Positions 45,622-62,533 are shown, numbered from the stretch's first letter. The stretch: 64,000 nucleotides of DNA from a virus (IMGVR_UViG_3300028283_000231); one strand, 5' to 3'. Numbers and translations: made by a program. Notes: generated by a model from the sequence alone, not told the origin.

Positions 45622-46162
45622 AACACAATTAAAATAATGAACACAGAAGAGATTAAACACATCTTCTCTTTACCACACGTTAAAGAAGAAGTTAAAAGAT
45701 ATATGACTGGTTTCAAAGGCGAAGCTAGAGATACAAAAGAAGCATATTTTATCTTCGCTAAATATATGAAACGCGAAGATATAACAGACGAAGAAAAGAA
45801 AATATTTAAAGATCAAATGATCGATCTTTTAAAAGGAGTCGGCGTGGTTGTACCATTCCAATTAATTCCTTTACCATTCGTGAGCACTATACTAATGATG
45901 TTAACAGAACAGGTAGCTAACGAAATGGGTATCAAGATATTACCAAGTTCTTTTTACGAAAAAGAAAAAGAAAAAGAAGAAAAAATAGAGGTATAATTTT
46001 TTTAATTCAAACAAACGACGTATCTTTGTATAACAATTAGAAATAATAGAAAGATATGATAGTAGAAGGATTTGGAATATTAATGTTAGGACTCTGTGTA
46101 GTAGCAGTAGGATTAGAAGTTAAGAATACGTTCAAATTTGGAAAAAAGTGACTTTTTTTTCA

Positions 46163-46179
46163 AAATATATAAAACAAAG
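46163..46179 (+). promoter_or_regulatory. Promoter of tRNA operon 1
   Basis: aaatatataaaacaaag is identical to 58025-58041. Confidence 0.7.
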
Positions 46180-46221
46180 ACAAAAAGATAGAATACAAAC
46201 AATATTAAAAAAATAGAAATC

Positions 46222-46317
46222 ATGTTATACACATCTAAACATAGTAAACATTTTAGTTCATCATCCAAGTGGTTTACCACATTCGGGGTTGAAACGGATT
46301 TGCTATGTGTTAGCTGA
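46222..46317 (+). CDS. Attenuator leader peptide 1 (MLYTSKHSKHFSSSSKWFTTFGVETDLLCVS)
   Basis: Manual translation; core S/K/H/F/W matches the downstream tRNAs; contains antiterminator segment ttcggggtt (46282-46290). Confidence 0.75.
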   Translation: MLYTSKHSKHFSSSSKWFTTFGVETDLLCVS

Positions 46318-46337
46318 TACAAACATAGTAATAACGG

Positions 46338-46375
46338 AAAACCCCGAACTCAAAAAGTTTGGGGTTTTTTGTTTT
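46338..46375 (+). terminator. Intrinsic terminator/attenuator before tRNA operon 1
   Basis: aaaaccccgaact-caaaa-agtttggggtttt followed by a U-rich tract. Confidence 0.88.
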
Positions 46376-46393
46376 AATAAAGTTCTTAAAAAT

Positions 46394-46464
46394 ACGGGTG
46401 TAGCACAATGGCAGTGTGACGGTCTCCAAAACCGCTGATGGGGGTTCGAATCCCTCCACCCGTG
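46394..46464 (+). tRNA. tRNA-Trp(CCA)
   Basis: Cloverleaf; anticodon arm acggt-ctCCAaa-accgc; GTTCGAATC. Confidence 0.92.
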
Positions 46465-46498
46465 CAAAGTGTTCATTGAAATATTGATTTAATTTATT

Positions 46499-46614
46499 GG
46501 GGAAGTAGCTCAGTTGGTAGAGCAACGTAAAAACGTAATTTGGCATAAATTACTAACAGCAAAACAAAACGCCTTCTAAGCCGTTGGCCACTGGTTCGAG
46601 TCCAGTCTTCCCCT
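46499..46614 (+). tRNA. tRNA-Arg(TCT) interrupted by a 43-nt insertion in the anticodon stem
   Basis: Removing 46528-46570 restores acggc-ctTCTaa-gccgt. Confidence 0.7.
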
Positions 46615-46621
46615 CTTATAT

Positions 46622-46696
46622 GGTGCTATTAGCTCAATCGGTAGAGCGCATGCCTGTGGAGCATGAGGCAATGGGATCGAAACCCATATAGCACCC
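46622..46696 (+). tRNA. tRNA-His(GTG)
   Basis: catgc-ctGTGga-gcatg; atypical T-loop GATCGAAA; C73. Confidence 0.85.
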
Positions 46697-46697
46697 T

Positions 46698-46774
46698 GTG
46701 TTTGTAGCTTAATTGGTATGAAAAGCGCAAGATTGTGACTCTTGTAGATACGGGTTCGACTCCCGCCAAACACC
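46698..46774 (+). tRNA. tRNA-His(GTG)
   Basis: caaga-ttGTGac-tcttg; C73. Confidence 0.88.
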
Positions 46775-46779
46775 CAACT

Positions 46780-46860
46780 ATGTAATGAAGTAGCTGAAAC
46801 CAGATAACGCAACTGGTCTGCCTTCCAAACTCGGAGAGAGTCCGACTCACTTCATTACAT
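46780..46860 (+). ncRNA. tRNA-like RNA with 12-bp terminal stem
   Basis: atgtaatgaagt/acttcattacat plus two internal hairpins; no canonical anticodon loop. Confidence 0.5.
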
Positions 46861-46864
46861 ATAT

Positions 46865-46936
46865 GGTCGGGTAGCTCAGGGGTAGAGCGTCAGCCTGAAG
46901 AGCTGAGCGTCGGGGGTTCAATTCCCTCTCCGACCA
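46865..46936 (+). tRNA. tRNA-Phe(GAA)
   Basis: tcagc-ctGAAga-gctga. Confidence 0.92.
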
Positions 46937-46941
46937 CACAA

Positions 46942-47014
46942 GGTTCCGTAGCTCAATTGGCAGAGCACCACACTTTTAATGTGGGGGTTATGGGTTCGAT
47001 TCCCATCGGGGCCA
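46942..47014 (+). tRNA. tRNA-Lys(TTT)
   Basis: ccaca-ctTTTaa-tgtgg. Confidence 0.93.
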
Positions 47015-47094
47015 CGAAAGCGGGAGTTCATGGTTCGAGTCCATGTGAGGGGTCGGCCGACCTTTATAGTGAAATGGTTATCATGCCCGCCATT
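47015..47094 (+). other. tRNA halves in permuted order (3' half, then 5' half)
   Basis: gcggg + T-arm + acceptor 3' strand, ggcc linker, then acceptor 5' strand + D-arm + cccgc. Confidence 0.55.
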
Positions 47095-47180
47095 GGAGAC
47101 ACCTATTGGCGCAGTTAGCTACCTCGAAAATAGTGAAGTCGATGAGAGTCGATGTGAAGGTTCAACTCCTTCTGTCTCCG
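47095..47180 (+). tRNA. tRNA-Ser(CGA), atypical D-arm
   Basis: ggagaca/tgtctcc acceptor, ctCGAaa loop, long variable arm, G73. Confidence 0.75.
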
Positions 47181-47241
47181 CAGGATTAGAGACTGTTATA
47201 ATTTCATAGTACTACCATATAAGGAAGCGTAGAAATTAAAT

Positions 47242-47326
47242 GGAAGATTGACTGAGTGGTCTATAGTGCACGCTTGGAAAGCGTGTGGGTGTAACAGCTC
47301 CACAGGTTCGAATCCTGTATCTTCCG
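47242..47326 (+). tRNA. tRNA-Ser(GGA)
   Basis: cacgc-ttGGAaa-gcgtg, long variable arm. Confidence 0.92.
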
Positions 47327-47334
47327 CAAAATAT

Positions 47335-47423
47335 GGAGAGTTGGCAGAGAGGTAATGCACCAGTTTGCTAAACTGCGGTCTGCGGTAGCACCAGCGGGGG
47401 TTCGATCCCCTCACTCTCCGCCA
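47335..47423 (+). tRNA. tRNA-Ser(GCT)
   Basis: cagt-ttGCTaa-actg, long variable arm, encoded CCA. Confidence 0.9.
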
Positions 47424-47428
47424 AAAAT

Positions 47429-47509
47429 GTGGTTGTAGCTGAGACGGTTTAGCATCGGGTTGAAGCCCCGAGATAGGACAGGACGGTGGTTCGATTCCGC
47501 CCAATCACA
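47429..47509 (+). tRNA. tRNA-Phe(GAA) with enlarged variable region
   Basis: tcggg-ttGAAgc-cccga. Confidence 0.8.
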
Positions 47510-47518
47510 CAAATAACT

Positions 47519-47605
47519 GGAGGGTCCTATGTGGCGCAGTTAGCTGTCTTGAAAACAGTGAAGTCGGCGAGAACCGGCGTGGGAGTTCGACTCTCCCATC
47601 CTCCG
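47519..47605 (+). tRNA. tRNA-Ser(TGA), atypical D-arm
   Basis: gctgt-ctTGAaa-acagt, long variable arm, G73. Confidence 0.82.
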
Positions 47606-47657
47606 CAATGGCGATGATAGTAACGCAGTTTGAAATAGAACAAATAACCTATCACAC

Positions 47658-47735
47658 GCGTCTGTAGCTCAGATGGTAGATACAAGCACCACTCTTTTAA
47701 AGTGGGGGTCGTGGGTTCGAACCCCACCAGGCGCA
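47658..47735 (+). tRNA. tRNA-Lys(TTT) with enlarged D-loop
   Basis: ccact-ctTTTaa-agtgg. Confidence 0.85.
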
Positions 47736-47751
47736 CAAAAAATTAAATGAT

Positions 47752-48483
47752 ATGAAATACTTAATAGGAATACAACCAACAGGAAAACTACATATAGGAA
47801 ACTATCTTGGATGTCTGGCAAAAGGTTTACGCCTTCAAAACGAAGGTCACGACGTCACATTCCTTATAGCAAACTATCATAGTATGACCACTGGTTCATA
47901 CACAGAAGAAACTGAAAATGAGTTAGTTAGATTGGGTTGTAAAAATATAAAGCGTCAAACACCTGAGTACACAGAGAAGTTCTTTGAATTATGTTGTAAA
48001 ATGAATTTGGGTCAACTTTTAAAGATGCCTCAATACAAAGATAAGAGAGACAAGGTGGAATATGATTTAGGATTACTTTTATATCCAGTGTTAATGACGG
48101 TAGATATAATAATCAACGATCCAGATGTGATTATTGTAGGATTAGATCAAGTGGCTCATATAGAATTAGCTAATGATATAGCAAAAAGAGTAGGAATAGA
48201 TAAACATTTTGAGTACGAACTGGGGGATATAAATAAGATAATGTCTTTGATAGATCCAACAATTAAAATGTCTAAATCATCTGGTGAAAAACACGTTCTT
48301 TATATCTTTGATGAAAACTATAAAAGTAAATTGAAGAAGGCTAATATGAATGACGAAGGATTACTTAATTTGAGAAAGATTGGTGATTTCTTTGGAATAG
48401 AAAGATGTGATTCAAATTTTGAATATAAAATGAGATTAGCTGAAGTATTAGAAAAAACCTTCCAAGAGGAAGAAGTCTTCTGA
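47752..48483 (+). CDS. trpS: Tryptophanyl-tRNA synthetase, minimised (243 aa)
   Basis: GIQPTGKLHIGNYLG (HIGH), YPVLM..DI, VGLDQVAH, KMSKS. Confidence 0.88.
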   Translation: MKYLIGIQPTGKLHIGNYLGCLAKGLRLQNEGHDVTFLIANYHSMTTGSYTEETENELVRLGCKNIKRQTPEYTEKFFELCCKMNLGQLLKMPQYKDKRDKVEYDLGLLLYPVLMTVDIIINDPDVIIVGLDQVAHIELANDIAKRVGIDKHFEYELGDINKIMSLIDPTIKMSKSSGEKHVLYIFDENYKSKLKKANMNDEGLLNLRKIGDFFGIERCDSNFEYKMRLAEVLEKTFQEEEVF

Positions 48484-48565
48484 GGTAGCTCTGGTATAGG
48501 TTCGCGCGCAGGGTCTATATTGGGAATTAGCAAAAGGAAGAGCAACTCACAAATCTTGGAAGAAT

Positions 48566-48640
48566 GGGATCATAGGTCAATTGGTAAACTAGTAGACTTT
48601 TAATCTACGGCTCCGGGTTCGACCCCCGGTGGTCCCACCA
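48566..48640 (+). tRNA. tRNA-Lys(TTT)
   Basis: gtaga-ctTTTaa-tctac; encoded CCA. Confidence 0.92.
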
Positions 48641-48645
48641 AACAC

Positions 48646-48717
48646 ACGTCTATGGTGTAATGTGCAGCACAAAGGCTTCCAAACCCTTTTGTCCGAGTTC
48701 GAATCTTGGTAGGCGTA
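48646..48717 (+). tRNA. tRNA-Trp(CCA), one anticodon-stem mismatch
   Basis: aaggc-ttCCAaa-ccctt by cloverleaf register (a TCC reading is less well paired). Confidence 0.65.
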
Positions 48718-48719
48718 CA

Positions 48720-48833
48720 AAAGTTAAGTGGCGAAACTGGTAACGCTTGGGGATAAGCTCTCTATAAAAACCTGTGATGGGTTAGTAAGTCTAAATCTTC
48801 GGATAGTATAGGTTCGAGTCCTATCTTAACTTT
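48720..48833 (+). ncRNA. Enlarged tRNA-like RNA / pseudo-tRNA
   Basis: aaagttaag/cttaacttt acceptor-like stem, D-loop tggcgaaactggtaacgc, intact T-arm, extra hairpins. Confidence 0.5.
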
Positions 48834-48838
48834 TATTT

Positions 48839-48911
48839 GGGTTCATAGGTCAATTGGTTAAACTAGTAGACTCTTAATCTACGGCTCTGGGTTCGAATCC
48901 CAGTGAACCCA
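48839..48911 (+). tRNA. tRNA-Lys(CTT)
   Basis: gtaga-ctCTTaa-tctac; near-copy of 48566-48640. Confidence 0.92.
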
Positions 48912-48916
48912 CAAAC

Positions 48917-48989
48917 GGGATGCTAGCTCAACTGGCAGAGCTGGACACTCTTAATGTTCAGGTTCGGGGTTCGAGTCCCCGGCGTCCCA
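48917..48989 (+). tRNA. tRNA-Lys(CTT)
   Basis: ggaca-ctCTTaa-tgttc. Confidence 0.9.
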
Positions 48990-50160
48990 CAGTTAGGTTT
49001 TTTTACAATTTTTACATTTTTTCAGAACCATAATTTTATATATCTTAGCACCTTCTTTGTTTGTAGAAGCCAGGAATGTTACTTTCACTGTTCCTTTTCT
49101 AGTGAAAGTCATTTTCTTACCAGTTATATCGTATGTTATTAAACATTCTTTCCCGTTTTCTTCTGCTACTATATTAAGTTCGTAATCTTCCTTTTTAATT
49201 TCTTTTATTTCGCTATATAAGTGAACAACACTAGTTTGTTCTTCTTTCCTTAATTGTTTATCTCTCGATAAGTATATAGTGAAAGGCTTCTCTATATCTA
49301 CTTTCAGATTCTGGTTGAACTTCATCCACTAATGGTAAAGGTTTAATTAATAAATCTTTAACAGATTTCCATGTCAACTTTTCTTTTAAAAAATCGTCGA
49401 AGTGTGTAATGTTTTTTAAATTTTTCATCGTCCAGATTTTTTTATTGCTATATATTGTTTTAATTTTGCAAAAATAAAACAATTAATAAGTTATATACTA
49501 TATTAGAGGTAATTAAGGATCATTTATGAAGATATTTTTAACAATTATATTATTAGTATTATCTAATATAAATTTATATTCACAAGAAGGCGTTGGTAAG
49601 TTTAAAATAAACAAATCTACTGTTGATGTAATCAAAGACGTAGAAAGTGAAATTGGTAAAACTTACGATATTACCAACGTCTTGGAGTTTTATAACAATC
49701 ATTATATCAATGGTGATTTGAAATTCCAAGAGATAATTATGGACACTACTACTAATTGTAAAAATTCTAGAATATTTTATATATCAGAATACACTATATC
49801 TAATATCAAATTAAAGGAAATTTATTTAGTTTTCTTTAAAGACTTGCTTGTAGAATTCAGATGTGATAAGAGTAAAGAACTAGATATATTATTTTCTAGA
49901 AAATATGGAAGACCTTACGTGTTTCAGAAATTATCACCAGATATGGTTTCCAACACTTTAAAGTACGACGAACATATGACCAAATTTGTTTGGAGGGAAA
50001 GTAATATAACTACTATATCATTTGAAAAGAAACAGGTATTTGACGGTATTGTTAGAGACGCTGGATCATATTTTATCATATATGACGTGACTTACAGAAA
50101 AATTATTGAAGATTGTGATATTTTTAACGATAATTTTGAAAATAAAATAATTTATTAACT

Positions 50161-50625
50161 ATGTGTGAATTAAACTCTTTAATTGAAAAGGCTAACAAAG
50201 CTTCAACAGAAAAAGGTTTTTGGGAAGATTACGATAATATGATTAAGAAAATGAAAGGTCTTCCCAAACAATTTATTCAATCTGATATTGATAGAATCAA
50301 ATTAGCTTTCTACAATGAAAAAATATCTTTAATATCTTCTGAGCTTGGTGAAGCCACTGAAGCTATGAGAATAGGAAAATATTGTGCTTTGAACGAAGAT
50401 GGTTTGAAAAATATTAAAGATCTTCTCGATGAAGAGAATAGTGGTTTTAAATATCAAGGTGCTTATATTACTCATATTAAAGATACATTTGAAGACGAGA
50501 TTGCTGATTCTTTCATCAGATTATTTGACTTGTGTTACAAGATGGGTATTGATATTGAGACCTTTATCTTAATGAAGATGGAGTATAATATGCTCAGAGA
50601 TTCTAAACACGGTAAAAAGTTCTAA
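50161..50625 (+). CDS. MazG-like nucleotide pyrophosphohydrolase
   Basis: SELGEATEAMR and EDEIADSFIRLFDL. Confidence 0.75.
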   Translation: MCELNSLIEKANKASTEKGFWEDYDNMIKKMKGLPKQFIQSDIDRIKLAFYNEKISLISSELGEATEAMRIGKYCALNEDGLKNIKDLLDEENSGFKYQGAYITHIKDTFEDEIADSFIRLFDLCYKMGIDIETFILMKMEYNMLRDSKHGKKF

Positions 50626-50669
50626 TAAATTTTTTTATTTAGATATTTATTATTACTTTCGTTAAAATA

Positions 50670-51200
50670 ATGCTTACTATGGAAGAAAAATATAAAGAGC
50701 TATTATCTTGGATTGATGATGTTCTTGAAAGTAAGAAAGTATCTATATTAATGAATGACCATATATCTGGTTTCATTGCGTCTAAAATTGCCTCAAATAA
50801 AGTTGGTAAAGATAACGTTGTGAACGTTATAATCCCTTGCTATTCAAACACAGAATACATTTTAACATCAGCCTTGTTTAGCAACGAACAAGGTATTAAA
50901 TATAAAAGTATAGGTATAAAACACGTTTTTGATTCTATAATGGAAAAAGACATAGAAGACGAAGATTCTATTGATATTACTAATATTCTTCGTGGACATA
51001 TCATGGAAGAAATTAGTCTTAAAAATAAGAGTGTTGTATTTGAATTTGTAAAAAAAGAGGGGTCAGGATGGTGGAGAGCTGATGGCAACTACGCTTTCAG
51101 AATTCTTCGTCCCAATAACGAACAAGAGTTAATATGGTCTTTTGATTTTTCAGAAAAAGAATTGATTGAATTTGCTAAATATTTAGGCATTGATGGATAA
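50670..51200 (+). CDS. Degenerate NAD-synthetase-like N-terminal domain
   Basis: SGFIASKIA...GKDNVVNVIIPCYS resembles NadE, but the SGGxDS loop is lost. Confidence 0.45.
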   Translation: MLTMEEKYKELLSWIDDVLESKKVSILMNDHISGFIASKIASNKVGKDNVVNVIIPCYSNTEYILTSALFSNEQGIKYKSIGIKHVFDSIMEKDIEDEDSIDITNILRGHIMEEISLKNKSVVFEFVKKEGSGWWRADGNYAFRILRPNNEQELIWSFDFSEKELIEFAKYLGIDG

Positions 51201-51552
51201 TTTCATAGATACACCTGAACTTTTCCTGGAAACAACTATCAATGATACCTGGAAAAATAAACTCATTTGGATCAAAGAGTTATTGGAGTACGGTTCTAAA
51301 TATACTGTTCTCATTCCAGTTATAGGTTATAAATATCTTAAAATAGAAACATTAGATATTGGTCAACCTTCTTTTGTTAAAGCTGAATATCATACAGGAG
51401 TAGCTAAAAATAAAGTGGACTTTATATCATTGAAGGCACACGAACACCCAGAAAGAATACAAAGATTAATACTAGCAATAAGAAGGCAACAAGACGCAAA
51501 AAATTAAAATAGTTATTAGTTATTATATCATGATTTTGCATGATCTTATAAA

Positions 51553-51771
51553 TTGTTGATTATGAAAGAGGGAGAAGATTATTTTGTTTGGCACTGTGGA
51601 ACTAAATTCGACGATGAAGGTACTTTAATTACTGATGGTGGTAGAGTTCTAGCTGTAACAGCGATGGGAGAAACACCGGAAGAAGCTTTAAAAAGGGCTT
51701 ACGAAGTAGCTGAGAAAATTCAATACGAAGGTAAATATTATAGAAAAGACATTGGTCAGGATTTATTATGA
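51553..51771 (+). pseudogene. PurD (GAR synthetase) C-terminal domain fragment
   Basis: HCGT...LITDGGRVLAVTAMG.T.EEA..RAYE....I.YEGKYYRKDIG; no N or ATP-grasp domain upstream. Confidence 0.7.
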
Positions 51772-51936
51772 AAAAAGAAGAAGAAATAAAAGAAAAATTA
51801 GAGTGTGCATTAATCGCGTTAAAGACATACGAAGACTTTGATGAAGTAGGATATGCCACATATAAAGGGTGGATTGATGCACTTAAATGGGTATTAGAGT
51901 CGGAAGACAAACTTACATGGATAAAGGATAAAACAA

Positions 51937-52389
51937 ATGAAAAATAAATTAAGTATAAAAAATAAGAAAGCATTTTTCAATTACGAAATTATTGAAAGTG
52001 AAGTAGCTGGGCTAGTTTTACTTGGAACAGAAGTAAAATCCATAGTGGATGGTAAAATCAGTTTTACAGACGCTTATTGTGATTTTGTAGAAAACGAATT
52101 ATGGCTTAAGAATTTTCATATCAGTGAATATGAAAAGGCTGCAGAAAATCACGATCCTAAACGTGATCGTAAACTCTTGTTAACTAAACAACAGTTAAAT
52201 AAATTCAAAAAGAAATTTGACGAGAAGGGATTAACTATTGTTCCTCTTAATATTTTCATTAATACTAAAGGACTTGTTAAAATGGATATTGCTCTAGTGA
52301 GGGGTAAGAAACAATATGATAAAAAAAATACAATTGCTGAGAGAGAAGAGAAAATTAGAATAAAAAGAGATTTTAATATTAATATATAA
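51937..52389 (+). CDS. smpB: SsrA-binding protein
   Basis: NKKAFFNYEI, AGLVLLGTEVKS, HDPKRDRKLLL, GLTIVPL, RGKKQYDK. Confidence 0.95.
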   Translation: MKNKLSIKNKKAFFNYEIIESEVAGLVLLGTEVKSIVDGKISFTDAYCDFVENELWLKNFHISEYEKAAENHDPKRDRKLLLTKQQLNKFKKKFDEKGLTIVPLNIFINTKGLVKMDIALVRGKKQYDKKNTIAEREEKIRIKRDFNINI

Positions 52390-52409
52390 GGAAAAGAACT
52401 TTATGTATT

Positions 52410-53315
52410 ATGAACAATTTTAAAATAAAAAATCTAAAGACCGATAGAAGTGTATTTTTAGAAAGATATTTAATTGAAAATTATTCGGTAAAATCAAAAG
52501 ATGATATAACGAAGGAATTGGGGTTATCTTGGAATTATATACAAAAATTAGTTTGTTTATTTGGGTTAAAAAGGGAATTTAATGAGTTTAAATATAGTTT
52601 TTCTATAAAGAAATTATTGGAATTTGATAATATGTCTTGTTACTGGTTGGGGTTTATATTAGCTGATGGACATATATCAAAAGTTAAAAATATTCAAATA
52701 AATTTGGCGATAAAAGATAAAGAACATTTATATGAACTGGAAAAATATGTGGGTCATAAAATAAGCAAATATGAGGATAATACTAAAATTAGATGTATTA
52801 TACAGGATAAACCAACAATAAATCAAATATCAAAAATGTTTAAATGGAAAACCAATAAAACAAAAAATCCACCAGTGATACCTCCGATAATAAGAGGAGA
52901 TAAATTATTTAGTTTAATAATAGGATTTATAGATGGAGATGGAAGCGTATCGAAAAAAGGAGATTGTATAAGAATAAAATGTGACAATACGTGGAAAGAT
53001 ACAATAGAAGAATTCTATGAAAATATAACTGGTGAAAAAAGAGAATTTGATATAACCTCTGATAATTGTTCAATTATACGCATAACAAAATATAAAGAAT
53101 TAGAAAGAATAAAAAATAAAGCTAATATGTTGGGACTTCCAATTATGAGAAGAAAGTGGGATAGAATTATAGACAATAGGATCGTAAAATCTGATAAATA
53201 TTTAATTGTTGAGAATTTATTGAAATTAAATAAAAGTGTAAATGAAATAATGAAAGAAACAAATTTTAGCGAGTCGTTTATATATAAAATTAAATCAAAC
53301 ATAAAAAATTACTAA
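52410..53315 (+). CDS. LAGLIDADG homing endonuclease
   Basis: YWLGFILADG and IIGFIDGDG. Confidence 0.85.
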   Translation: MNNFKIKNLKTDRSVFLERYLIENYSVKSKDDITKELGLSWNYIQKLVCLFGLKREFNEFKYSFSIKKLLEFDNMSCYWLGFILADGHISKVKNIQINLAIKDKEHLYELEKYVGHKISKYEDNTKIRCIIQDKPTINQISKMFKWKTNKTKNPPVIPPIIRGDKLFSLIIGFIDGDGSVSKKGDCIRIKCDNTWKDTIEEFYENITGEKREFDITSDNCSIIRITKYKELERIKNKANMLGLPIMRRKWDRIIDNRIVKSDKYLIVENLLKLNKSVNEIMKETNFSESFIYKIKSNIKNY

Positions 53316-53768
53316 AAATAAGGAGAAAAATATGCCACAGACATTTGAAGTTTATAGTTTTCCAGCTGACCTGGTTGTTACAGAAGAAATGGTTTTCAAT
53401 TTCACTAAGTTTATTGATTTTGATCTAAATAAAGCTATTCTTAAACATTATGATGTGAATGTTTTAGATGTTGAGACTTTCTATAAAATAATTAAAGATC
53501 TTATCAAAGAAGGAACCGTTGGGGGAGGCGATAGCAAATGGAGTGATAAATTATATAGAATAGTTGAAACTATTATGTATGATAAATATCTCTCTAAGAG
53601 TTTTGGTTTTTTCAAAGTCGATAAATATACAGACGAAGAAGGACATGATCAATATGATTATTACGAATACGTTAGCACTGAAAAACATATTAAAAATGCC
53701 ATAAGTGAGATTGAGAAACAAATCAAAGCACTTGAAAAATATGGTAAAAAAGTAAAATTCGAAATATC

Positions 53769-54746
53769 ATGACTAAAATAAGTAAATTTAAGAAACTTCT
53801 CTCTGAAGCTGTTGATATCGCTAGATCATACGGATTCGATATTACAGTTGAATCCATTATGGAGCGTTGGAGTGAAACACACAGGCATTGGCATACTCCA
53901 GATCATCTGAATGAAATGTTAGAAGGAGTTAAAGAACTATACAAGGATAAAAAAGTAAGTGAAAGGGAATACAATATCCTTATGATTGCCGCCATTTTCC
54001 ACGATATTGTTTACGACACTAAAAAGAAAGATAACGAGGAAAAAAGTGTTGAGTACATGATGTCCAAATTTAATAAAGAACTAATTGATACTAGAATATC
54101 TATATCTGATTGGAGAGTAGACGAAGATATAATTAAAATTACAGATGTTATAATGGGAACTAAAACCCACGATTCAATAGAAGGTCTATTGAAGAAATTC
54201 AATAAACTAGATACAGCTATACTCGACTCCCAATTTATTGATATGCTTGATTGGGAAAATAAAATCTATAAAGAATATAAATGGGTGGGTTGGAAAGAAT
54301 ATAAAAAAGGAAGAACTAAATTCCTTCTTAGTCAAATTAAAGGACACACTCATAACGTTTTAAATATTAAGAACTTAATCGATTATATTAATAAGAAGGT
54401 TCCAAAGACTGGTATTGTTTACTACGATATAGATAAACTACCAACTATTGAGAAGTTTATTGAGAACAACAATAAAGTCAATAATTTATTTGATAATGTT
54501 ATGACTTTAATTGTGTTTAATTCAGACAATTACAATAAAGAGAAGATTAAAGAGTACGGTATTTGTTCGGATGGTAACAATGAATTTTTTGCTCTTATGG
54601 AGGATTCTGTGATTGGTTTTGTAAGTAAGCAGACTGGTGATGTTACTATTGTGAAGGAAATGAAGTATATGGATAAATATAATAATAAGGCTTTGGATCA
54701 ACAATTAAGTACTAAGTTAGGAGATTTTAGAGTAATTTATATTTAA
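53769..54746 (+). CDS. HD-superfamily phosphohydrolase-like protein
   Basis: RHWHTPDHL, AIFHDIVYD, DNEEKS. Confidence 0.75.
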   Translation: MTKISKFKKLLSEAVDIARSYGFDITVESIMERWSETHRHWHTPDHLNEMLEGVKELYKDKKVSEREYNILMIAAIFHDIVYDTKKKDNEEKSVEYMMSKFNKELIDTRISISDWRVDEDIIKITDVIMGTKTHDSIEGLLKKFNKLDTAILDSQFIDMLDWENKIYKEYKWVGWKEYKKGRTKFLLSQIKGHTHNVLNIKNLIDYINKKVPKTGIVYYDIDKLPTIEKFIENNNKVNNLFDNVMTLIVFNSDNYNKEKIKEYGICSDGNNEFFALMEDSVIGFVSKQTGDVTIVKEMKYMDKYNNKALDQQLSTKLGDFRVIYI

Positions 54747-54795
54747 TTTTTTTATTCTGAGATTTATTTTTATCTTTGTATAAATAACAGGTATT

Positions 54796-54963
54796 ATGTT
54801 CACATCAACAGAAAATAAGATAAAGCTAACCATTGTTAAGGCTAATATCGCAAAGAGCGTTAGAGAGTTAGCGATCTTTTCTATCTTGGATGAAATCAAG
54901 AAGAAGGCTGGTGATAACTATATTCCTGCTGATCCTTACGGTGAAGAAATTTGGGATAAATGA
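54796..54963 (+). CDS. Small protein ending DPYGEEIWDK (not in the ORF track)
   Basis: Manual translation, 55 aa; TATCTTTG promoter at 54771. Confidence 0.7.
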   Translation: MFTSTENKIKLTIVKANIAKSVRELAIFSILDEIKKKAGDNYIPADPYGEEIWDK

Positions 54964-55211
54964 GAAATCTTAAAATAGGTAATAGGGTAAAATATAAGAA
55001 CAACGAAGGAGAAGTGTTTGATATACAGTATCAAAATTACGATCAAGTTGTTGGTGTAAAATTCGATAGACGTTGGCGTTGGGATATGCCTGAGTCTAAA
55101 GAGTTTTATTTTCATTATAATGCTATTAAGAAAATCATAGTTAGGGTTTTCAGTGCTGAAGATCCTTATGGTGAAGAAGATTGGGATTATTAACTATTAA
55201 TATAAATAAAA

Positions 55212-55394
55212 ATGAAAAAACTTTACAAATCAAAAAATGACGCTGTGATAAGTGGAGTATGTGGTGGTTTGGCTGAATATTTTAACATAGATTCATTTCT
55301 TGTTAGATTGTTATTCGTACTCTTTTCCTGGATGGGATTTTTCCCTGTATTTCTTTATCTTATTTTAATGTTAACTTTACCTGAAAAACCATAA
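55212..55394 (+). CDS. PspC-domain membrane protein
   Basis: KLYKS..D..ISGVCGGLAEYFNID..LVRLLFV. Confidence 0.88.
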   Translation: MKKLYKSKNDAVISGVCGGLAEYFNIDSFLVRLLFVLFSWMGFFPVFLYLILMLTLPEKP

Positions 55395-55398
55395 CGTT

Positions 55399-55926
55399 AT
55401 GATAACGATGTTTGTAACATACGATCTAGTATGTAAAGAGTACGAAAAAGAGTCTCAAGAACTCATTAATGTACTGAGAAATAGTAACAGTAAGTATAAA
55501 GACACCCCAGTTGAAAAACTCCATTGGGCATATTCTTTTTCTTATTTCAGAAAAAAGTCTGAAAACACACCTGAATATTACGAAACACTCTTTAAACTTC
55601 CCTTTGAGGAAAGATTAGAAGTGGAATTGAAAAGAGTTAGAGTAAGTCTAGCTTTATCTGCTGGATATTTCTATCTATCAGATAGGGTAACTAACGTTTC
55701 TGATTCAGTTAAAGAAACAGTTAGGCTTATCACTACACAGAAAATGGTAAACGAACAACAAATGATAGGTGACGAAAATGTACTCAACTCTATACCATTT
55801 GTTAAAAATGAAGAAAAACCACAACCAACATCTTTACAGGATCAGTTAAAACAAGCTATTGATACTGAGGATTATATGGAGGCGGCTAGGATTAGGGACG
55901 AAATTAAAAAATTACACGAGGCGTGA
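55399..55926 (+). CDS. Hypothetical protein with C-terminal UvrB/C (UVR) motif
   Basis: LQDQLKQAIDTEDYMEAARIRDEIK. Confidence 0.75.
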   Translation: MITMFVTYDLVCKEYEKESQELINVLRNSNSKYKDTPVEKLHWAYSFSYFRKKSENTPEYYETLFKLPFEERLEVELKRVRVSLALSAGYFYLSDRVTNVSDSVKETVRLITTQKMVNEQQMIGDENVLNSIPFVKNEEKPQPTSLQDQLKQAIDTEDYMEAARIRDEIKKLHEA

Positions 55927-56962
55927 CGATATTATTATATTTTGGATTAATATTTGCTTTTTATATTGTACCTATTGTAATAGTCTTTATCATTTCGCAT
56001 AATAGTAATGATTTTGAACTAAACAATAGAGGTATGGTAATTCATTTAATACCTCTTGTTGCTATTATCAGTTTGGTTATAATAGCTGCGTCTATTATTA
56101 AAGATTGGTGGGATGATAACGGATTTGAATTTACAATTATTGATAATGTTAAAGAGAGTTTAAGAGAAAGAAAAATAAGAAAAGAAAAGAGAAAAAGGGA
56201 TTTAGAAGAAAGATTAAGGAAGATAAAGTTGGGTATTATTAAGATTTCACCTCAAGATCCGTATGGTGAAGAAAATTGGGATTAATATGTTACCAAAAAC
56301 TAAAAGAGAAAAATTATTATATTTCATGCCAAGTGATGTGAAAGAAGTTTGGGATAAATTAGAACAAAATGTGCAAGAAAATATAATAGGCGCTTCTGAA
56401 TTTTATATTCTTGATAGTTCATGGAAAGTGGAACAGTTTTGGAAGACTAGACGATTAGATTTATATATAAAAAAGGTCATTAAAAGAATATTCAGCGCTG
56501 AAGACCCTTACGGTGAAGAAAATTGGGATTAAAAGATTTATATATAAATAAAAAAGATTTAAATAAATTATGAACATTAAATTTAATACCTTTTTAAACG
56601 AAGAAATGACTCATAAAGAACTAGCGGAAGATCTAAAAACAGCAAAATTCATTCAAGTTGAATTCGTTGGTAAAGGTAAAAATTGGGGACTAACATATAC
56701 CAAAGACGGTGAAAAACACGAAGAAGGTGGGTTTAATACTAACGCTGATGTTCATAATTTCTTAGTAGATAACGATATAGATTACGGTGGTAAGCCAGGT
56801 TATTTACAGATGAAGGGGTTTAGGGATAAACAAATCGCCAAAGTACCTTTTGGTAATTATCAAAGGCAATTGATGGATAACGGAATAGATCCAGAATTAT
56901 TGATGTAAATTTTTTTTATATAGAAAAGAAGCTTATATTTGTATTAGTAATTATCAGTGAAC

Positions 56963-57108
56963 AGATTTTTATTGAAACTAGTGTAACAAGATACGATCCA
57001 AAAATTAGCACGTCTTTAGCGGTAGTAAACCTATAACGATTGGATGATACAGAGGCCAATTACAAGAAAGAGCGGTGGAGAATCGGGAGTCCGCATCAAT
57101 AAAAGTCT
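56963..57108 (+). ncRNA. Candidate structured ncRNA (about 145 nt)
   Basis: 13-bp closing stem, nested stems, downstream of TATATTTG promoter (56934). Confidence 0.5.
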
Positions 57109-57451
57109 TTAAATTTAATTTTATGAAAAAAGAAGCCTGTAAATTCGCTAAGTGGTTAGGTAAAAACGGTTGGTATTGCATTTCTCATAGTGGTAAACTT
57201 TGGGAAAGACCCAATGATATTAAACACCCAAAGAAAGGTGTGTATCATATGACTATTGATGAACTTTATGATGAGTATAATGGAGAAAAATAAAGTGTGT
57301 GGGAATTGCGTACATTGTAAACCTTTTTACGACGTGAACACTGTTTGTTTCATTGGCCATCCAATGAGATATAAATCTGTTAAGAAAACAGATAGTTGTG
57401 ATAAATTCAAAAAGAAATAACATAAATTTTTTTTAAATTGGAAAACTTTCG

Positions 57452-57459
57452 TATCTTTG
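57452..57459 (+). promoter_or_regulatory. Bacteroidota-type sigma-A -7 element TAnnTTTG (representative copy)
   Basis: Also intergenic at 38895, 44784, 46021, 54771, 56934, 63745 (+) and 2507, 9017 (-); 57452 and 63745 share 21 identical nt. Confidence 0.75.
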
Positions 57460-58024
57460 TATTCTAAATCCAAACCTATGAAAAAATTTCTGTTTTATAA
57501 GAAAAATTTAAATACAGGAAGAGTAAGGAAACATCCATTTTTCACAGTAGAATGTGAAAATATAGATGAAGCAAAGAAAGCTTTTGAAGCTAAAAATGAA
57601 TTAGTGTTTAAAGAAACTGAAACATATATTATAAAATGAACAAGAATACAGCTAATAAATTGTGGATGGATTTATATTTTGGTATAAGTCCTTTGTGTTT
57701 CTCCTTATCAAAAGATGGTAATGATTACGCAATCATCTTCAAACCAACAAAAGAAAAAGTACTCACTTTCGAAGAAGGAGTTAATTTGGCAACTAAACAC
57801 AATCTTATAAAAGTAAAGAAATGATAGAAAAAAGATTTGATTTTATTCTCGAAGATCTCAATGAGATCGAATCCACTCTTCAAAAGATAGGAGTTGATAC
57901 AGAGAACATTATGACGGAAGGCGGTGATTTCTTAATCACTTTATTCAATAACATTAGAATAGCTTGTGATCTTAAAGACGACGAACCAGATAACTGGTAA
58001 TGGAAAAAAGTGATATTTTTGATT

Positions 58025-58041
58025 AAATATATAAAACAAAG
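58025..58041 (+). promoter_or_regulatory. Promoter of tRNA-Leu operon
   Basis: Identical 17-mer to 46163-46179. Confidence 0.7.
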
Positions 58042-58067
58042 TAATAATAATACAATATATAAAACAT

Positions 58068-58136
58068 ATGAATAACATTCTACATATTAACCTTCTGAAC
58101 AGTTTATGCCTCTTGGGTATAAAGTTGATTGGGTGA
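58068..58136 (+). CDS. Attenuator leader peptide 2 (MNNILHINLLNSLCLLGIKLIG)
   Basis: 7 of 22 codons are Leu: CTA, CTT, CTG, TTA, CTC, TTG, TTG; antiterminator segment tgattgggt (58126-58134) overlaps the stop codon. Confidence 0.85.
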   Translation: MNNILHINLLNSLCLLGIKLIG

Positions 58137-58172
58137 AGTATGTGTGGATGTCTCAAAAGGAGCTTCGAACTC

Positions 58173-58206
58173 AAACCCAATCAGCAATGATTGGGTTTTT
58201 TGTTTT
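58173..58206 (+). terminator. Intrinsic terminator/attenuator before tRNA-Leu operon
   Basis: aaacccaatca-gcaa-tgattgggttt plus U-tract. Confidence 0.9.
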
Positions 58207-58234
58207 TATGTTCTTTAACATTTTGAAATAATAA

Positions 58235-58375
58235 AGATTGCTTACAGCAAACAAAACGGCTCCCGCCAAAAATTGGGAGAGTAGTGTAAGGGTAACACAC
58301 CATTGGACGCAGAGAAAAAGCAAAGATGGAGAATGTTGGTTCGAGTCCAACCTTATTTTAAAAAGGCAATCTGTT
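58235..58375 (+). ncRNA. ACAGCAA-motif stem enclosing a degenerate tRNA
   Basis: agattgctt/aggcaatct stem, ACAGCAA, internal D-arm-like and T-arm (gttggttcgagtccaac) elements. Confidence 0.5.
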
Positions 58376-58378
58376 TAT

Positions 58379-58460
58379 GCCCTTGTGGCGGAATTGGTAG
58401 ACGCGCTAGACTTAGGATCTAGTGTCTCCGGATGTGCAGGTTCGAGTCCTGTCAAGGGCA
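58379..58460 (+). tRNA. tRNA-Leu(TAG)
   Basis: ctaga-ctTAGga-tctag, long variable arm. Confidence 0.93.
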
Positions 58461-58465
58461 CAAAA

Positions 58466-58549
58466 GCGGTTATGGCGGAATTGGTAGACGCGCCAGCTTG
58501 AGGGGCTGGTGTCCGCAAGGACGTAGGGGTTCGAGTCCCCTTAACCGCA
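58466..58549 (+). tRNA. tRNA-Leu(GAG)
   Basis: ccagc-ttGAGgg-gctgg, long variable arm. Confidence 0.93.
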
Positions 58550-58551
58550 CA

Positions 58552-58670
58552 ATGAAGTATGACGAAGAGGTAGACGTATTACCCGCCAAGGGTAAACATG
58601 GGAAAGACCGAAGTACAAGGGCTAACCGCTGATAAATCAGTCTTATAGGTTCGAATCCTATTACTTCATT
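58552..58670 (+). ncRNA. Enlarged tRNA-like RNA
   Basis: atgaagt/acttcat acceptor, intact T-arm, non-canonical anticodon loop, about 45 nt of extra structure. Confidence 0.5.
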
Positions 58671-58675
58671 TACAA

Positions 58676-58759
58676 GCCGATGTGGCGGAACTGGTAGACG
58701 CGCCACACTCAAAATGTGGTGTCCGCAAGGGCGTGTGGGTTCGAGTCCCACCTTCGGTA
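58676..58759 (+). tRNA. tRNA-Leu(CAA)
   Basis: ccaca-ctCAAaa-tgtgg, long variable arm. Confidence 0.93.
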
Positions 58760-58765
58760 CAAAAT

Positions 58766-58838
58766 GACTCTGTAGCCTAATTGGTAGTGGCGTTGGGTTT
58801 AAGCCCCAAATATCTCGGTTCGACTCCGTGCAGGGTTA
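58766..58838 (+). tRNA. tRNA with Leu(TAA) anticodon and short variable arm
   Basis: ttggg-ttTAAgc-cccaa; 4-nt variable region; A73. Confidence 0.8.
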
Positions 58839-58843
58839 CAAAT

Positions 58844-58917
58844 GGCTCTATGGCGTAATAGCGTAGTCGCGCAAGTCTTAGAAACTTGATGTCCCAGTTC
58901 GAGTCTGGGTAGGGCCA
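58844..58917 (+). tRNA. tRNA with Leu(TAG) anticodon and short variable arm
   Basis: caagt-ctTAGaa-acttg; 4-nt variable region; A73. Confidence 0.8.
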
Positions 58918-58972
58918 CAAATATGAAACAATGGGACCATATAATTTTTATATATAAGAATAAAACTCATAT

Positions 58973-59743
58973 ATGGAACAATTCATTTACACTTTAACAG
59001 ATCCAGAAGACGGTGATATAAAATATATTGGAAAAACTAACAATATTGAAAAAAGAATTAAAAGACATTATTCTGATTATTATATTCAGTTGGAACCTTG
59101 GACAAAAAAGAATAAATGGTTAAAATATTTAAAAAATAAAAAATTGGTTCCGATTATAGAAATATTGGATATTGGTGATGATAATAATATCAATAATTTA
59201 GAAAAATATTGGATATGCCAATTTAAAGTTTGGGGATTCAAGTTAAAGAATCAGACTGATGGAGGTGATGGAGTATCTTGGTTAGGTAAAAAACACAGTG
59301 ATGAAAGTAAAAGATTGATGAAAATATCTAACACTAGAAAAAGGTCAATAATAATGTATGATTTAAATTTAAATCCAATAATAAAATTTATTAGCATAAG
59401 AGGGGCTGAGAGAGAAACTGGAATATTTAGACAACAAATAAAATTTAGTTGCGATTTAAAAGGTAGTGCCGGCGGTTGTTATTTTAGATATGATGAAAAC
59501 AATTCGAATATTCTTGAAGATAAAAACTGGAGAGATTATATAAATATAAGAAATTATGGAAAATTTGATAAAAATCTAGATAAAGAATATTTTGAAACAG
59601 TTGTTAAAAAATCAAAATCATACCGTGATGTAGTTGATAATTTGAATGTTAATTATGATAGTAAAGTGAAACACCATGTTTATAGAATCATAAAAAAATA
59701 CAATATAAATATAGATCATTTCACAAGAAAGGAAAAGAAATGA
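58973..59743 (+). CDS. GIY-YIG homing endonuclease
   Basis: FIYTLTDP..IKYIGKT; LKNQTDGGDG; own ATATATA promoter. Confidence 0.88.
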   Translation: MEQFIYTLTDPEDGDIKYIGKTNNIEKRIKRHYSDYYIQLEPWTKKNKWLKYLKNKKLVPIIEILDIGDDNNINNLEKYWICQFKVWGFKLKNQTDGGDGVSWLGKKHSDESKRLMKISNTRKRSIIMYDLNLNPIIKFISIRGAERETGIFRQQIKFSCDLKGSAGGCYFRYDENNSNILEDKNWRDYINIRNYGKFDKNLDKEYFETVVKKSKSYRDVVDNLNVNYDSKVKHHVYRIIKKYNINIDHFTRKEKK

Positions 59744-61266
59744 AGAAAAAAATGTTTGTGGTTCCGATGATACCATACCCTAGCGGTAATATCCATATGG
59801 GTCATATGAGAAATTACACCATATCTGACGCTATAGCCAGGTACTGGAGAAATAAAGGATACGAAGTTTGCCACCCTATTGGATGGGATTCCTTTGGTAT
59901 GCCAGCAGAAAACGCAGCTATCAAAAATAACATTCATCCTAAAGAATGGACAGATGCCAATATTGATAACATGCGAAACCAAATGAAAAGAATGAATATG
60001 TCTTTTGATTGGGACAAAGAAATATCTACATGTGAAGTTGATTACTGGCAACACGAACAAAGATTCTTTATAGACGCTTGGAAAGCAGGGTTCATTGAGA
60101 AGAAAATTGGCATAGTAAACTGGGACCCAGTGGATCAAACAGTTATGGCATCAAATCAAGTTATCGATGGAAAGGGTTGGAGATCAGGAGCTAAGATTGA
60201 GAAGAAAGAGATGGTTCAATATTATTTCAAAACTACTATGTTTGCTGATGAGATGTATGAATCAATAAAAGATATTGAGAATGATTGGCCCGAAATCATA
60301 ACAAAACAACAAAAACAATTTATTAAAAACGGTATTAGGGAAGGAGACGAAGTAAGACCTTTCGCAGATTGGTGTATTTCAAGACAAAGATTTTGGGGAA
60401 CTCCGATTCCTATGATTAATTGTCCAAAATGTGGCACTGTTCCAAACGAACAAATACCAGTTATTGCTCCACATGACGTAGAATTTAACGGTAAAGGTAA
60501 TCCTATCGATAATCATCCAACTTGGAAATATATTAAATGTCCAGTTTGTGGCAGTGACGCTGAAAAAGAAACAGATACTATGGACACATTCGTACAATCA
60601 AGCTGGTACTTCATTCGTTACATATCAGACTTTAATGGTGTTAGATTTGATTGGGATAAGATAAAACATTGGTTTCCAATTGATTATTATATTGGTGGAG
60701 CTGAGCACGCTACTGGTCATATGATTTATGCCAGATTTTTCTGGAGGATTTTTAAGAAGATGGGATATATTCCAGAGGATGCTCCCACTGAACCTTTTGG
60801 TAAGGTTATTACTCAGGGTATGGTGAAGAAGGATGGTAAGAAAATGTCTAAAAATTTTGGTAACGGGGTATCTCCAGATGAAATGGTGGAGAAGTATGGT
60901 AGTGATGTAATAAGAATGTATATTATGTTTGCTGGTCCTCCTGATCAAGATTTTGAGTGGATTGATGATAATATATCTGGTTGTAATAGATTTTTCAAGA
61001 AATTCAAGAATGGGTTTGAAAGAACTAAAGGGATGGTTTATGTAGAGAATAAGAAGAATGAAGATTGGGCGAAGAATAGAATAGAAGTGATGAAACAGAG
61101 AACTAAAGATGTTTACGAAAGGACATATAAGTTTAATACTATTGTATCTACGGCGATGGAAACTTATAACGCCATATCGAAGACAACAGATATAAACATT
61201 TGGAGGAATGGTTATGATGCTATTATGGACGCGATGGAGCCAATTGCACCGGGATTCAGAACGTAA
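59740..61266 (+). CDS. leuS: Leucyl-tRNA synthetase lacking CP1 editing, Leu-specific and C-terminal domains (508 aa)
   Basis: PYPSGNIHMGH, GWDSFGMPAENAA, DWCISRQRFWGTPIP, TMDTFVQSSWY, YIGGAEHA, KMSK. Confidence 0.92.
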   Translation: MKKKMFVVPMIPYPSGNIHMGHMRNYTISDAIARYWRNKGYEVCHPIGWDSFGMPAENAAIKNNIHPKEWTDANIDNMRNQMKRMNMSFDWDKEISTCEVDYWQHEQRFFIDAWKAGFIEKKIGIVNWDPVDQTVMASNQVIDGKGWRSGAKIEKKEMVQYYFKTTMFADEMYESIKDIENDWPEIITKQQKQFIKNGIREGDEVRPFADWCISRQRFWGTPIPMINCPKCGTVPNEQIPVIAPHDVEFNGKGNPIDNHPTWKYIKCPVCGSDAEKETDTMDTFVQSSWYFIRYISDFNGVRFDWDKIKHWFPIDYYIGGAEHATGHMIYARFFWRIFKKMGYIPEDAPTEPFGKVITQGMVKKDGKKMSKNFGNGVSPDEMVEKYGSDVIRMYIMFAGPPDQDFEWIDDNISGCNRFFKKFKNGFERTKGMVYVENKKNEDWAKNRIEVMKQRTKDVYERTYKFNTIVSTAMETYNAISKTTDINIWRNGYDAIMDAMEPIAPGFRT

Positions 61267-61558: not shown

Positions 61559-61786
61559 GTGTTGTTCTGCGATAAAAAAATAAATATAATAATGAATATG
61601 AATGGAAAAGTAAAGTTCTTCAATGAAGCTAAAGGTTTTGGTTTTATTTTAGAAAATGAAACAGGAAAAGAGTATTTTGTACACGCCACAGGTTTAGTCG
61701 ACAGAATACAAGAAAATGACGAGGTTGAGTTTGAATTAACTCAAGGTAAAAAGGGATTAAATGCAATTGATGTTAAGCTAATATAA
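61559..61786 (+). CDS. cspA: Cold-shock protein
   Basis: GKVKFFNEAKGFGFI, YFVHATG; real start probably MNMNGK/MNGK at about 61592-61598. Confidence 0.93.
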   Translation: MLFCDKKINIIMNMNGKVKFFNEAKGFGFILENETGKEYFVHATGLVDRIQENDEVEFELTQGKKGLNAIDVKLI

Positions 61787-61811
61787 TAGTAATCAACATA
61801 AACATTTATCT

Positions 61812-61843
61812 AAAAGACCCTGAGAAATCGGGGTTTTTTGTTT
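61812..61843 (+). terminator. Intrinsic terminator after cspA
   Basis: gaccctga-gaaa-tcggggtt plus U-tract. Confidence 0.8.
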
Positions 61844-62436: not shown

Positions 62437-62520
62437 GCCGATGTGTTGTAATAGGTAGCCAAGACAGACTTAAAATCTGTTGAGAGTAATCTCGTGCCGG
62501 TTCGAGTCCGGCCATCGGTA
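62437..62520 (+). tRNA. tRNA-Leu(TAA), canonical long arm
   Basis: acaga-ctTAAaa-tctgt. Confidence 0.92.
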
Positions 62521-62533
62521 CAGTAAGGCGTAC

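Follow-up and report, generated by a model that had tools for sequence, protein, structure and literature searches.

A question of long standing is why phages carry genes for transfer RNA (tRNA) and how these genes are deployed. It is raised again by a 64,000-nucleotide stretch of viral DNA, IMGVR_UViG_3300028283_000231, the whole of which is called the window here. Between positions 46,163 and 61,266 the window holds two modules, each consisting of a short leader open reading frame (ORF), an intrinsic terminator, an array of tRNA genes and a gene for a reduced aminoacyl-tRNA synthetase. Sequence comparison and modelled RNA folds indicate that the two modules are very probably ribosome-mediated leader-peptide attenuators that gate tRNA operons and would thereby supply tRNAs on demand. 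The putative tryptophanyl-tRNA synthetase (TrpRS) of the first module would be part of the supplied unit. The leucyl-tRNA synthetase (LeuRS) of the second would perhaps be part of it as well, judging from related phages.

The bearer of the modules is a giant freshwater phage of the Mahaphage type. The window has a G+C (GC) content of 31%, and across its tRNA region it is ~91% identical to LR756501, a 735-kb uncultured phage, and to LR756503, the 642-kb LR756502 being a more distant relative. All three are Mahaphage genomes with Bacteroidetes as predicted hosts (PMC7162821). For comparison we used LR756501, LR756502 and loci from IMG/VR that were reached through the TrpRS-like protein or LeuRS. 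The statistics on leader composition and RNA duplexes rest on ten independent modules, the two in the window and eight others. All module features described below lie on the + strand.

Leader peptides match the anticodons of their arrays

The leader ORF of module 1 (46222-46317) has 31 codons. Its codons 5-18 (46234-46275) form an unbroken run in which all 14 specify Ser, Lys, His, Phe or Trp, and every one of them can be decoded by tRNAs of the array. Together, these codons sample all eight canonical anticodon species found in the downstream array, none fewer than one time. In module 2, the leader ORF (58068-58136) has 22 codons, seven of them for Leu. All six synonymous Leu codons are present, and all four Leu anticodon species are sampled, ahead of five tRNA-Leu genes. 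Given phage codon usage, six distinct Leu codons in seven draws has a probability of 0.007. A different and independent Leu leader, at locus L030 on a contig reached via LeuRS, again contains six of the six Leu codons. As a general rule across leaders, codon diversity is marginal (p = 0.02), and it is clear for the Leu leaders.

The correspondence between leader and array holds throughout the ten modules, which contain 70 cognate residues above expectation, and none of 200,000 permutations of the array assignment gave a value as high. In a close relative of leader 1 (L017), the Ser and Phe codons have been shuffled and recoded, with the composition retained. Several leaders also keep the start context AGAAAT-N-ATG. 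The leader peptides that the earlier note on this DNA had placed at both loci are thus recovered as ORFs with clusters of cognate codons.

Leaders of this kind could also belong to classical amino-acid starvation sensors, in which the synthetase would be the relevant product and the tRNAs mere passengers. The mechanism is blind to the difference between a scarce and an uncharged tRNA, two modules do contain a cognate synthetase, and Escherichia coli pheST offers a textbook precedent for leader-peptide control of a synthetase. However, leader composition follows which anticodons the array contains, and no Leu codon is missing from the Leu leaders, a breadth that would be needless for sensing one amino acid. 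Moreover, no synthetase was found among the six ORFs of at least 150 amino acids scanned in two arrays of LR756501, one for Met, Gln, Ile and Glu tRNAs and the other for Arg, Thr, Val, Ala, Gly and Pro tRNAs, and extra tRNA is no cure for amino-acid starvation. Starvation sensing with the synthetase as its purpose is, in our judgment, distinctly unlikely.

Predicted terminators and antiterminators

Control of the arrays by attenuation would require a terminator and a competing structure, and both are predicted at each locus. The terminator of module 1 spans 46340-46375, with arms at 46340-46350 and 46356-46366 followed by a U-tract, and that of module 2 spans 58173-58206, with an 11-base-pair stem, a four-nucleotide loop and a U-tract. 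Both stems are GC-rich. The 5′ strand of the putative antiterminator, region 2, lies in the distal part of the leader. In module 1 it occupies 46282-46290 (leader codons 21-23) and is a perfect nine-nucleotide complement of the terminator 5′ arm; its duplex with region 3 has an energy of -15.3 kcal/mol (z = -3.8 against shuffled sequences). Region 2 of module 2 (58123-58135) comprises codons 19-23 including the stop and so takes in the end of the leader; it forms 11 base pairs with the 5′ arm and loop of the terminator (-18.5 kcal/mol, z = -4.1).

With the terminator 5′ arm plus loop as the target, the region 2/region 3 duplex is stronger than in shuffled sequences in each of the ten modules, with a mean z of -3.1, and the pairing partner is always located in the distal leader. 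Among orthologous leaders the sequences of regions 2, 3 and 4 diverge, yet region 2 always imitates the 3′ arm of the terminator.

As a proxy for folding during transcription, the RNA was cut just before the terminator 3′ arm and a ribosome footprint of 30 nucleotides was masked. Under these conditions the antiterminator forms with the ribosome on codons 1-17 of module 1 or codons 1-15 of module 2, and it is lost when the ribosome is placed further on. In the eight other modules the ribosome-masked folds show clear antiterminator behaviour in most cases, with only partial pairing at L010 of LR756501 and L012a of LR756502. The modelled geometry is that of trp-type attenuation, in which a stall would give read-through: the antiterminator and terminator are predicted to be mutually exclusive, and a ribosome that does not stall would cover the 5′ strand of the former. 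The earlier note's proposal of an antiterminator and a terminator at both loci is therefore supported by complementarity, by duplex z-scores and by the ribosome-masked folds.

Both modules also share other sequence hallmarks of attenuators, namely an ORF with a start codon before the regulated genes, a cluster of cognate codons and an intrinsic terminator. The classical scope of attenuators is limited to genes for amino-acid biosynthesis or for synthetases, whereas the first regulated genes here are tRNA genes.

Further modules in related phages

The earlier note had suggested a search of relatives for more such units. At least 18 further modules made of leader, terminator and array are found in LR756501, LR756502 and the IMG/VR contigs. 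The tRNA genes of LR756501 and LR756502 are clustered by amino acid, and the leaders follow suit. One leader of LR756501 abounds in codons for Thr, Pro, Ala, Val, Arg and Gly and stands ahead of tRNAs for the same six amino acids, and a second, with many Met, Gln, Ile and Glu codons, precedes tRNAs for those four. LR756502 has six units, in one of which seven Gln codons in a row stand ahead of four tRNA-Gln genes, while another has a Lys, His, Phe and Trp leader before an array that contains TrpRS. Twelve IMG/VR contigs, reached via the TrpRS-like protein, add at least 10 more units, among them leaders with many Lys codons ahead of Lys tRNAs and Ser/Arg leaders ahead of tRNAs for those two amino acids.

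Summed over the lineage, no fewer than 16 amino acids have tRNAs in attenuated arrays (Trp, His, Phe, Lys and Ser; Leu; Met, Gln, Ile and Glu; Arg, Thr, Val, Ala, Gly and Pro). Two modules do lie in the window, as had been claimed, but their apparent pairing is an effect of the window's edges, since the lineage has at least four. The design is thus conserved in relatives whose sequences have diverged.

Two side observations concern the arrays of LR756501. At ~690.6 kb (L011) there is an adjacent pair of tRNA genes with CUA anticodons (amber suppressors), which may point to a part of the genome where TAG is read through or recoded. Just past the position corresponding to the window end (L007), an ORF whose C terminus resembles bL12 by eye lies 5′ of the array for Ile, Cys, Asp, Asn and Tyr, before which no leader was found.

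tRNA arrays and synthetases

ARAGORN identifies 14 and five tRNA genes at the two loci, and Rfam adds further tRNA matches. The first part of array 1 (46394-47736) contains genes for Trp, Arg(UCU) with an insert, two His, Phe, Lys, three Ser, Phe and Lys, together with unusual tRNA-like genes; the second part (48566-48990) contains Lys, Trp, Lys and Lys. Some tRNAs of this array are over-long (a 78-nucleotide His, an 82-nucleotide Phe and a 79-nucleotide Lys, at 46698-46775, 47429-47510 and 47658-47736), and T-arms that ARAGORN leaves uncalled occur among the stretches 46776-46862, 47016-47241 and 48720-48830. The tRNA-Leu array of module 2 (58379-58918) has five genes with anticodons UAG, GAG, CAA, UAA and UAG.

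The two parts of array 1 flank a gene (47752-48483) for a protein of 243 amino acids with HIGH-like and KMSKS motifs. It matches residues 6-230 of a 326-residue TrpRS and lacks the C-terminal anticodon-binding part. Its score against TIGR00233 is 105.3 bits, below the cut-off of 176.75, and its best matches are to TrpRS and not to TyrRS. By sequence the protein is TrpRS-like, with a probable specificity for Trp. The gene begins 15 nucleotides after a tRNA, without a promoter box of its own, and its length is the same in 12 IMG/VR relatives.

The LeuRS gene of module 2 (59740-61266) encodes a minimal bacterial-type enzyme of 508 amino acids with HMGH and KMSKN motifs, as located by alignment to 7NUA. 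It scores 556.2 bits against TIGR00396 (cut-off 548.4). Only residues 33-226, 429-586 and 631-759 of an 877-residue LeuRS are matched; the enzyme has neither the CP1 editing domain nor the Leu-specific insert, and its C-terminal (tRNA-binding) domain is absent too. The arrays and the minimised cognate class I synthetases described in the earlier note are therefore both present.

Between the Leu array and LeuRS lies a GIY-YIG homing-endonuclease-like gene (58973-59743) with its own ATATATAA box at 58950. At L029 and L030 this gene is absent and LeuRS directly follows the array. From this adjacency, the operon link between array and LeuRS is probably ancestral and may have been loosened in the window.

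Promoter-like sequences

Upstream of each leader the window carries the same 17-nucleotide promoter-like sequence with a ATATATAA core, at 46163-46179 and 58025-58041. The exact 17-mer occurs only at these two positions in the window, and AAAAAAGTGA lies 5′ of each copy (46142-46151 and 58004-58013) across a gap of 11 nucleotides in both cases. It forms part of an upstream element that in module 1 (46140-46161) is an A6-GTGAC-T8 palindrome and in module 2 (58002-58021) reads A6-GTGA followed by a T-rich tract. This agrees with what had been noted before. Upstream elements of this type stand before four attenuator modules and, in LR756501, before the gene for the major head protein.

The promoter, which the earlier note had counted into the shared design, is however not specific to the modules. 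The ATATATAA core is also found before many ORFs of the window and before a lone tRNA. In LR756501 an extended form, GGAAAAAA(A/G)TGAC (that is, A6-(A/G)TGAC) followed by a T-run and AATATATA, is present at seven sites, one being 76365-76394 (L031). Three of the seven belong to attenuator modules and one lies 5′ of the major head protein gene. The 17-mer belongs to a general promoter class, which probably serves late or strong expression.

A scan for sigma-70 promoters gave results no better than shuffled sequences. In modules L002, L013 and L014 of LR756502, a Bacteroidota-type promoter, TTTG-N20-TATATTTG, is nearly identical across the three. It lies 5′ of the phage ATATATAA box, such that a tandem pair feeds a single leader. 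The pattern TTTG-N19-21-TAnnTTTG fits the LR756502 modules and neither of the window modules. Its presence in LR756502 is consistent with transcription by the host RNA polymerase, which obeys intrinsic terminators.

A motif between terminator and array

Directly after the terminator of module 2 there is a conserved 21-nucleotide motif (GTTCTTTGAAGTATTGAAATA-like; 58210-58230). In several arrays and sub-arrays (L006, L007, L010 and L030) a copy lies 5-8 nucleotides ahead of the initial tRNA or RNA gene, and a related copy in module 1 follows the first tRNA (46471-46491). The motif may serve in processing or as an internal promoter.

If it were a promoter, the terminators might merely end or insulate upstream transcription, the arrays being driven from within by this motif and by ATATATAA boxes. 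That the motif separates the terminator from the first RNA gene, in relatives as well as in module 2, fits such an arrangement, as does the ATATATAA box ahead of the GIY-YIG and LeuRS genes, and an RNA-library contig spans upstream genes through the promoter and leader of module 2. Insulation would leave unexplained why leader composition tracks the array in some 20 modules and why, lineage by lineage, region 2 resembles the 3′ arm of its terminator. Module 1, in addition, has no ATATATAA box from its terminator to position 49000. We consider insulation with internal promoters highly improbable.

Proposed mechanism and its trigger

The architecture suggests the following sequence of events. 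Transcription would start at the ATATATAA-class phage promoter, and a ribosome would begin to translate the short leader. When cognate aminoacyl-tRNAs are plentiful, the ribosome would proceed to cover region 2, the terminator would form and the polymerase would stop before the array. If any of the cognate tRNAs runs short or lacks its amino acid, the ribosome would instead stall in the regulatory codons (Ser, Lys, His, Phe and Trp in module 1, or Leu codons of all six kinds in module 2). Region 2 would then be free to pair with the terminator 5′ arm, and the polymerase would enter the tRNA array and the TrpRS gene, and in relatives also the LeuRS gene. The new tRNAs, once charged, would relieve the stall and so close a negative-feedback loop. 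Termination, read-through and the coupling of transcription to translation are inferred from this arrangement, as is the physiological trigger. The earlier note's central idea, that attenuation converts slow cognate decoding into read-through of the array and synthetase, is given comparative and statistical support by the diverged relatives.

Several observations weigh against attenuation. Equilibrium minimum-free-energy folds of the full leaders, ribosome masks included, always retain the terminator, and the switch must therefore be kinetic. The leader of module 1 continues past the end of region 2 (46290), with its stop codon 24 nucleotides further on, and a modelled ribosome parked at this stop leaves region 2 unmasked. 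The 21-nucleotide motif, if it is a promoter, would bypass the attenuator and weaken its control, and in the window LeuRS is split from its array by the GIY-YIG gene and the box which that gene carries. Some arrays of LR756501, such as that for Ile, Cys, Asp, Asn and Tyr, showed no leader in the scan. Finally, contigs from RNA libraries that are identical to the window cover 47896-48693 (the TrpRS-like gene and the next tRNAs) and 57472-58164, the second ending nine nucleotides before the terminator stem of module 2, though metatranscriptomes in the form of contigs cannot show 3′ ends, levels or termination, and DNA carry-over is possible.

Candidate triggers are the codon use of a phage with 31% GC set against the host tRNA pool, loss of host tRNAs in the course of infection, nuclease attack and starvation. 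Nuclease attack would be the principal one if, as the earlier note proposed, the modules were primarily a counter-defence that senses and replaces host tRNAs cut by anticodon nucleases or toxins. The tRNAs of phages T5 and T4 act against anticodon nucleases, and tRNA-Lys, which is encoded in module 1, is a target of PrrC-type and PARIS-type nucleases. The circuit would answer any loss of a cognate tRNA, nuclease damage included as a side effect. A gene for SmpB, moreover, is located between the modules (51937-52389, +; PF01668, E = 1.1e-50); its presence in the window had been noted before.

The breadth of the system argues for a different primary role. With at least 16 amino acids under attenuated arrays, well beyond the few known nuclease targets, the modules look more like a general supply on demand than a reply to one anticodon nuclease. 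This coverage, together with a promoter class shared with the major head gene, suits the bulk late translation of an AT-rich phage. The Rnl1-type ligase that had been reported in the window was not recovered, as searches of the candidate window ORFs by Pfam, PHROGs and PDB sequences revealed none; the only ligase detected belongs to the ATP-dependent DNA-ligase family (38920-40056). Neither Rnl1 nor another tRNA repair enzyme was detected in the window, and the sequence offers nothing that would separate nuclease damage from ordinary tRNA shortage. Counter-defence as the primary function is therefore unlikely.

A bolder extension of supply on demand is that the phage operates a genome-wide decoding monitor that resolves isoacceptors, in which the mini-ORF of each block tests its anticodons and the failing tRNAs, including those destroyed by nucleases, are replaced. 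We hold this to be doubtful. If true, it would amount to a real-time reading of the host tRNA pool, and the modules would both control supply and act as a counter-defence that can be induced.

ACAGCAA RNAs

The earlier note had included a further element, ACAGCAAAACAAAACG, in the design of the modules. Its copies turn out to have a different setting. The copy at 46556 sits within the tRNA-Arg(UCU) gene (46499-46614), which is interrupted between nucleotides 29 and 30 by a 43-nucleotide insert (46528-46570) containing a hairpin and the ACAGCAA motif. Deletion of the insert in silico restores a canonical tRNA-Arg(TCT). The second copy, at 58244, belongs to a free RNA of 138 nucleotides (58236-58373) with a tRNA-like interior, closed by a stem of nine base pairs (58236-58244 with 58364-58372). 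Further copies are found well within arrays, with covarying closing stems. Members with the family motif C(U)UACAGCAA are also present at loci L010, L007 and L035 of LR756501. The ACAGCAA element is thus a separate family of structured RNAs, outside the attenuator switch.

The family resembles the Dictyostelium Class I RNAs (RF01414) in having a closing stem, a CUUACAGCAA motif, a variable interior and a complementary stem followed by UG. The Rfam scores, 19.3 bits in the window and 37.1, 25.7 and 20.3 bits in LR756501, are all below the gathering threshold of 41.5. In addition, the phage copies have tRNA-like interiors or are inserts in tRNA genes, and they are at most candidate homologues.

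Neighbouring genes

Genes of mobile elements are scattered through the window, with IS605 OrfB/TnpB-like, LAGLIDADG-like, GIY-YIG and HNH types represented (10246-11508 on the - strand, 52410-53315, 58973-59743 and 61914-62384). A phage cold-shock protein, recognized by eye, is encoded at 61594-61786 and followed by an ordinary terminator (61811-61840). Beyond a lone tRNA-Leu(UAA) gene, the stretch 62520-62730 is richer in GC, apparently structured and non-coding, and has a terminator-like hairpin at its end; it has no Rfam match at gathering level.

Comparison with known systems

The phage modules resemble the enterobacterial attenuators (trpL, hisL, leuL, thrL, pheL and ilv) in their run of regulatory codons, in the pairing of the distal leader with the terminator 5′ arm and in the intrinsic terminator, and their leaders for several amino acids recall the thr and ilv type. 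They differ in cargo, which consists of tRNA genes and a synthetase and not of biosynthetic enzymes, and in that the leader mirrors an anticodon set, the Leu leader sampling every synonymous codon. They are also phage-encoded, with a predicted Bacteroidota host, and match no Rfam leader family. A closer parallel in cargo is the E. coli phenylalanyl-tRNA synthetase operon (pheST), which is controlled by the pheM leader. There, too, attenuation acts on a translation component cognate to the sensed codons, but only a synthetase is regulated, whereas the phage modules regulate mainly tRNA genes, with a synthetase in two modules only.

T-box riboswitches, which belong to synthetase and amino-acid genes of Gram-positive bacteria, likewise sense tRNA charging and switch between terminator and antiterminator before synthetase genes. 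In a T-box, however, uncharged tRNA is bound directly and translation is not needed, whereas the ribosome would be the sensor here. No T-box covariance match, specifier loop or T-box sequence was found, and the Rfam scan of the whole window returned tRNA matches only. A T-box or a known Rfam leader family was rejected on that basis.

The minimal LeuRS has a counterpart in the LeuRS of Mycoplasma mobile (PDB 3ZIU), which naturally lacks the CP1 editing domain and aligns in a single stretch (residues 2-484 to 35-526). The phage enzyme, at 508 amino acids, is shorter and also lacks the C-terminal tRNA-binding domain. A minimal TrpRS and an editing-less LeuRS would share demand-controlled units with tRNAs, the case for LeuRS resting on relatives in which its gene directly follows the array.

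Large sets of phage tRNAs and synthetases presumably keep translation going where the tRNAs of the host are poorly suited or have been destroyed. Many have been listed for huge phages (PMC7162821). That work describes gene content and no demand-sensing switch; a term search within it found attenuators, leaders and terminators all unmentioned. Nor did we find leader-peptide attenuation of tRNA genes described in the literature, for phages or elsewhere. The codon-matched attenuators imply that huge phages sense the decoding speed of defined sets of codons, with tRNAs made on demand, and they turn the question of how phage tRNAs are deployed into a directly testable circuit. They would also provide compact natural sensors for individual tRNA pools. 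Leader-peptide attenuation would thereby be extended to a new class of regulated product, tRNA genes, and to phages of Bacteroidota-type hosts. Compared with the trp operon, whose style of control these modules share, attenuation itself is known and the tRNA cargo is what is new.

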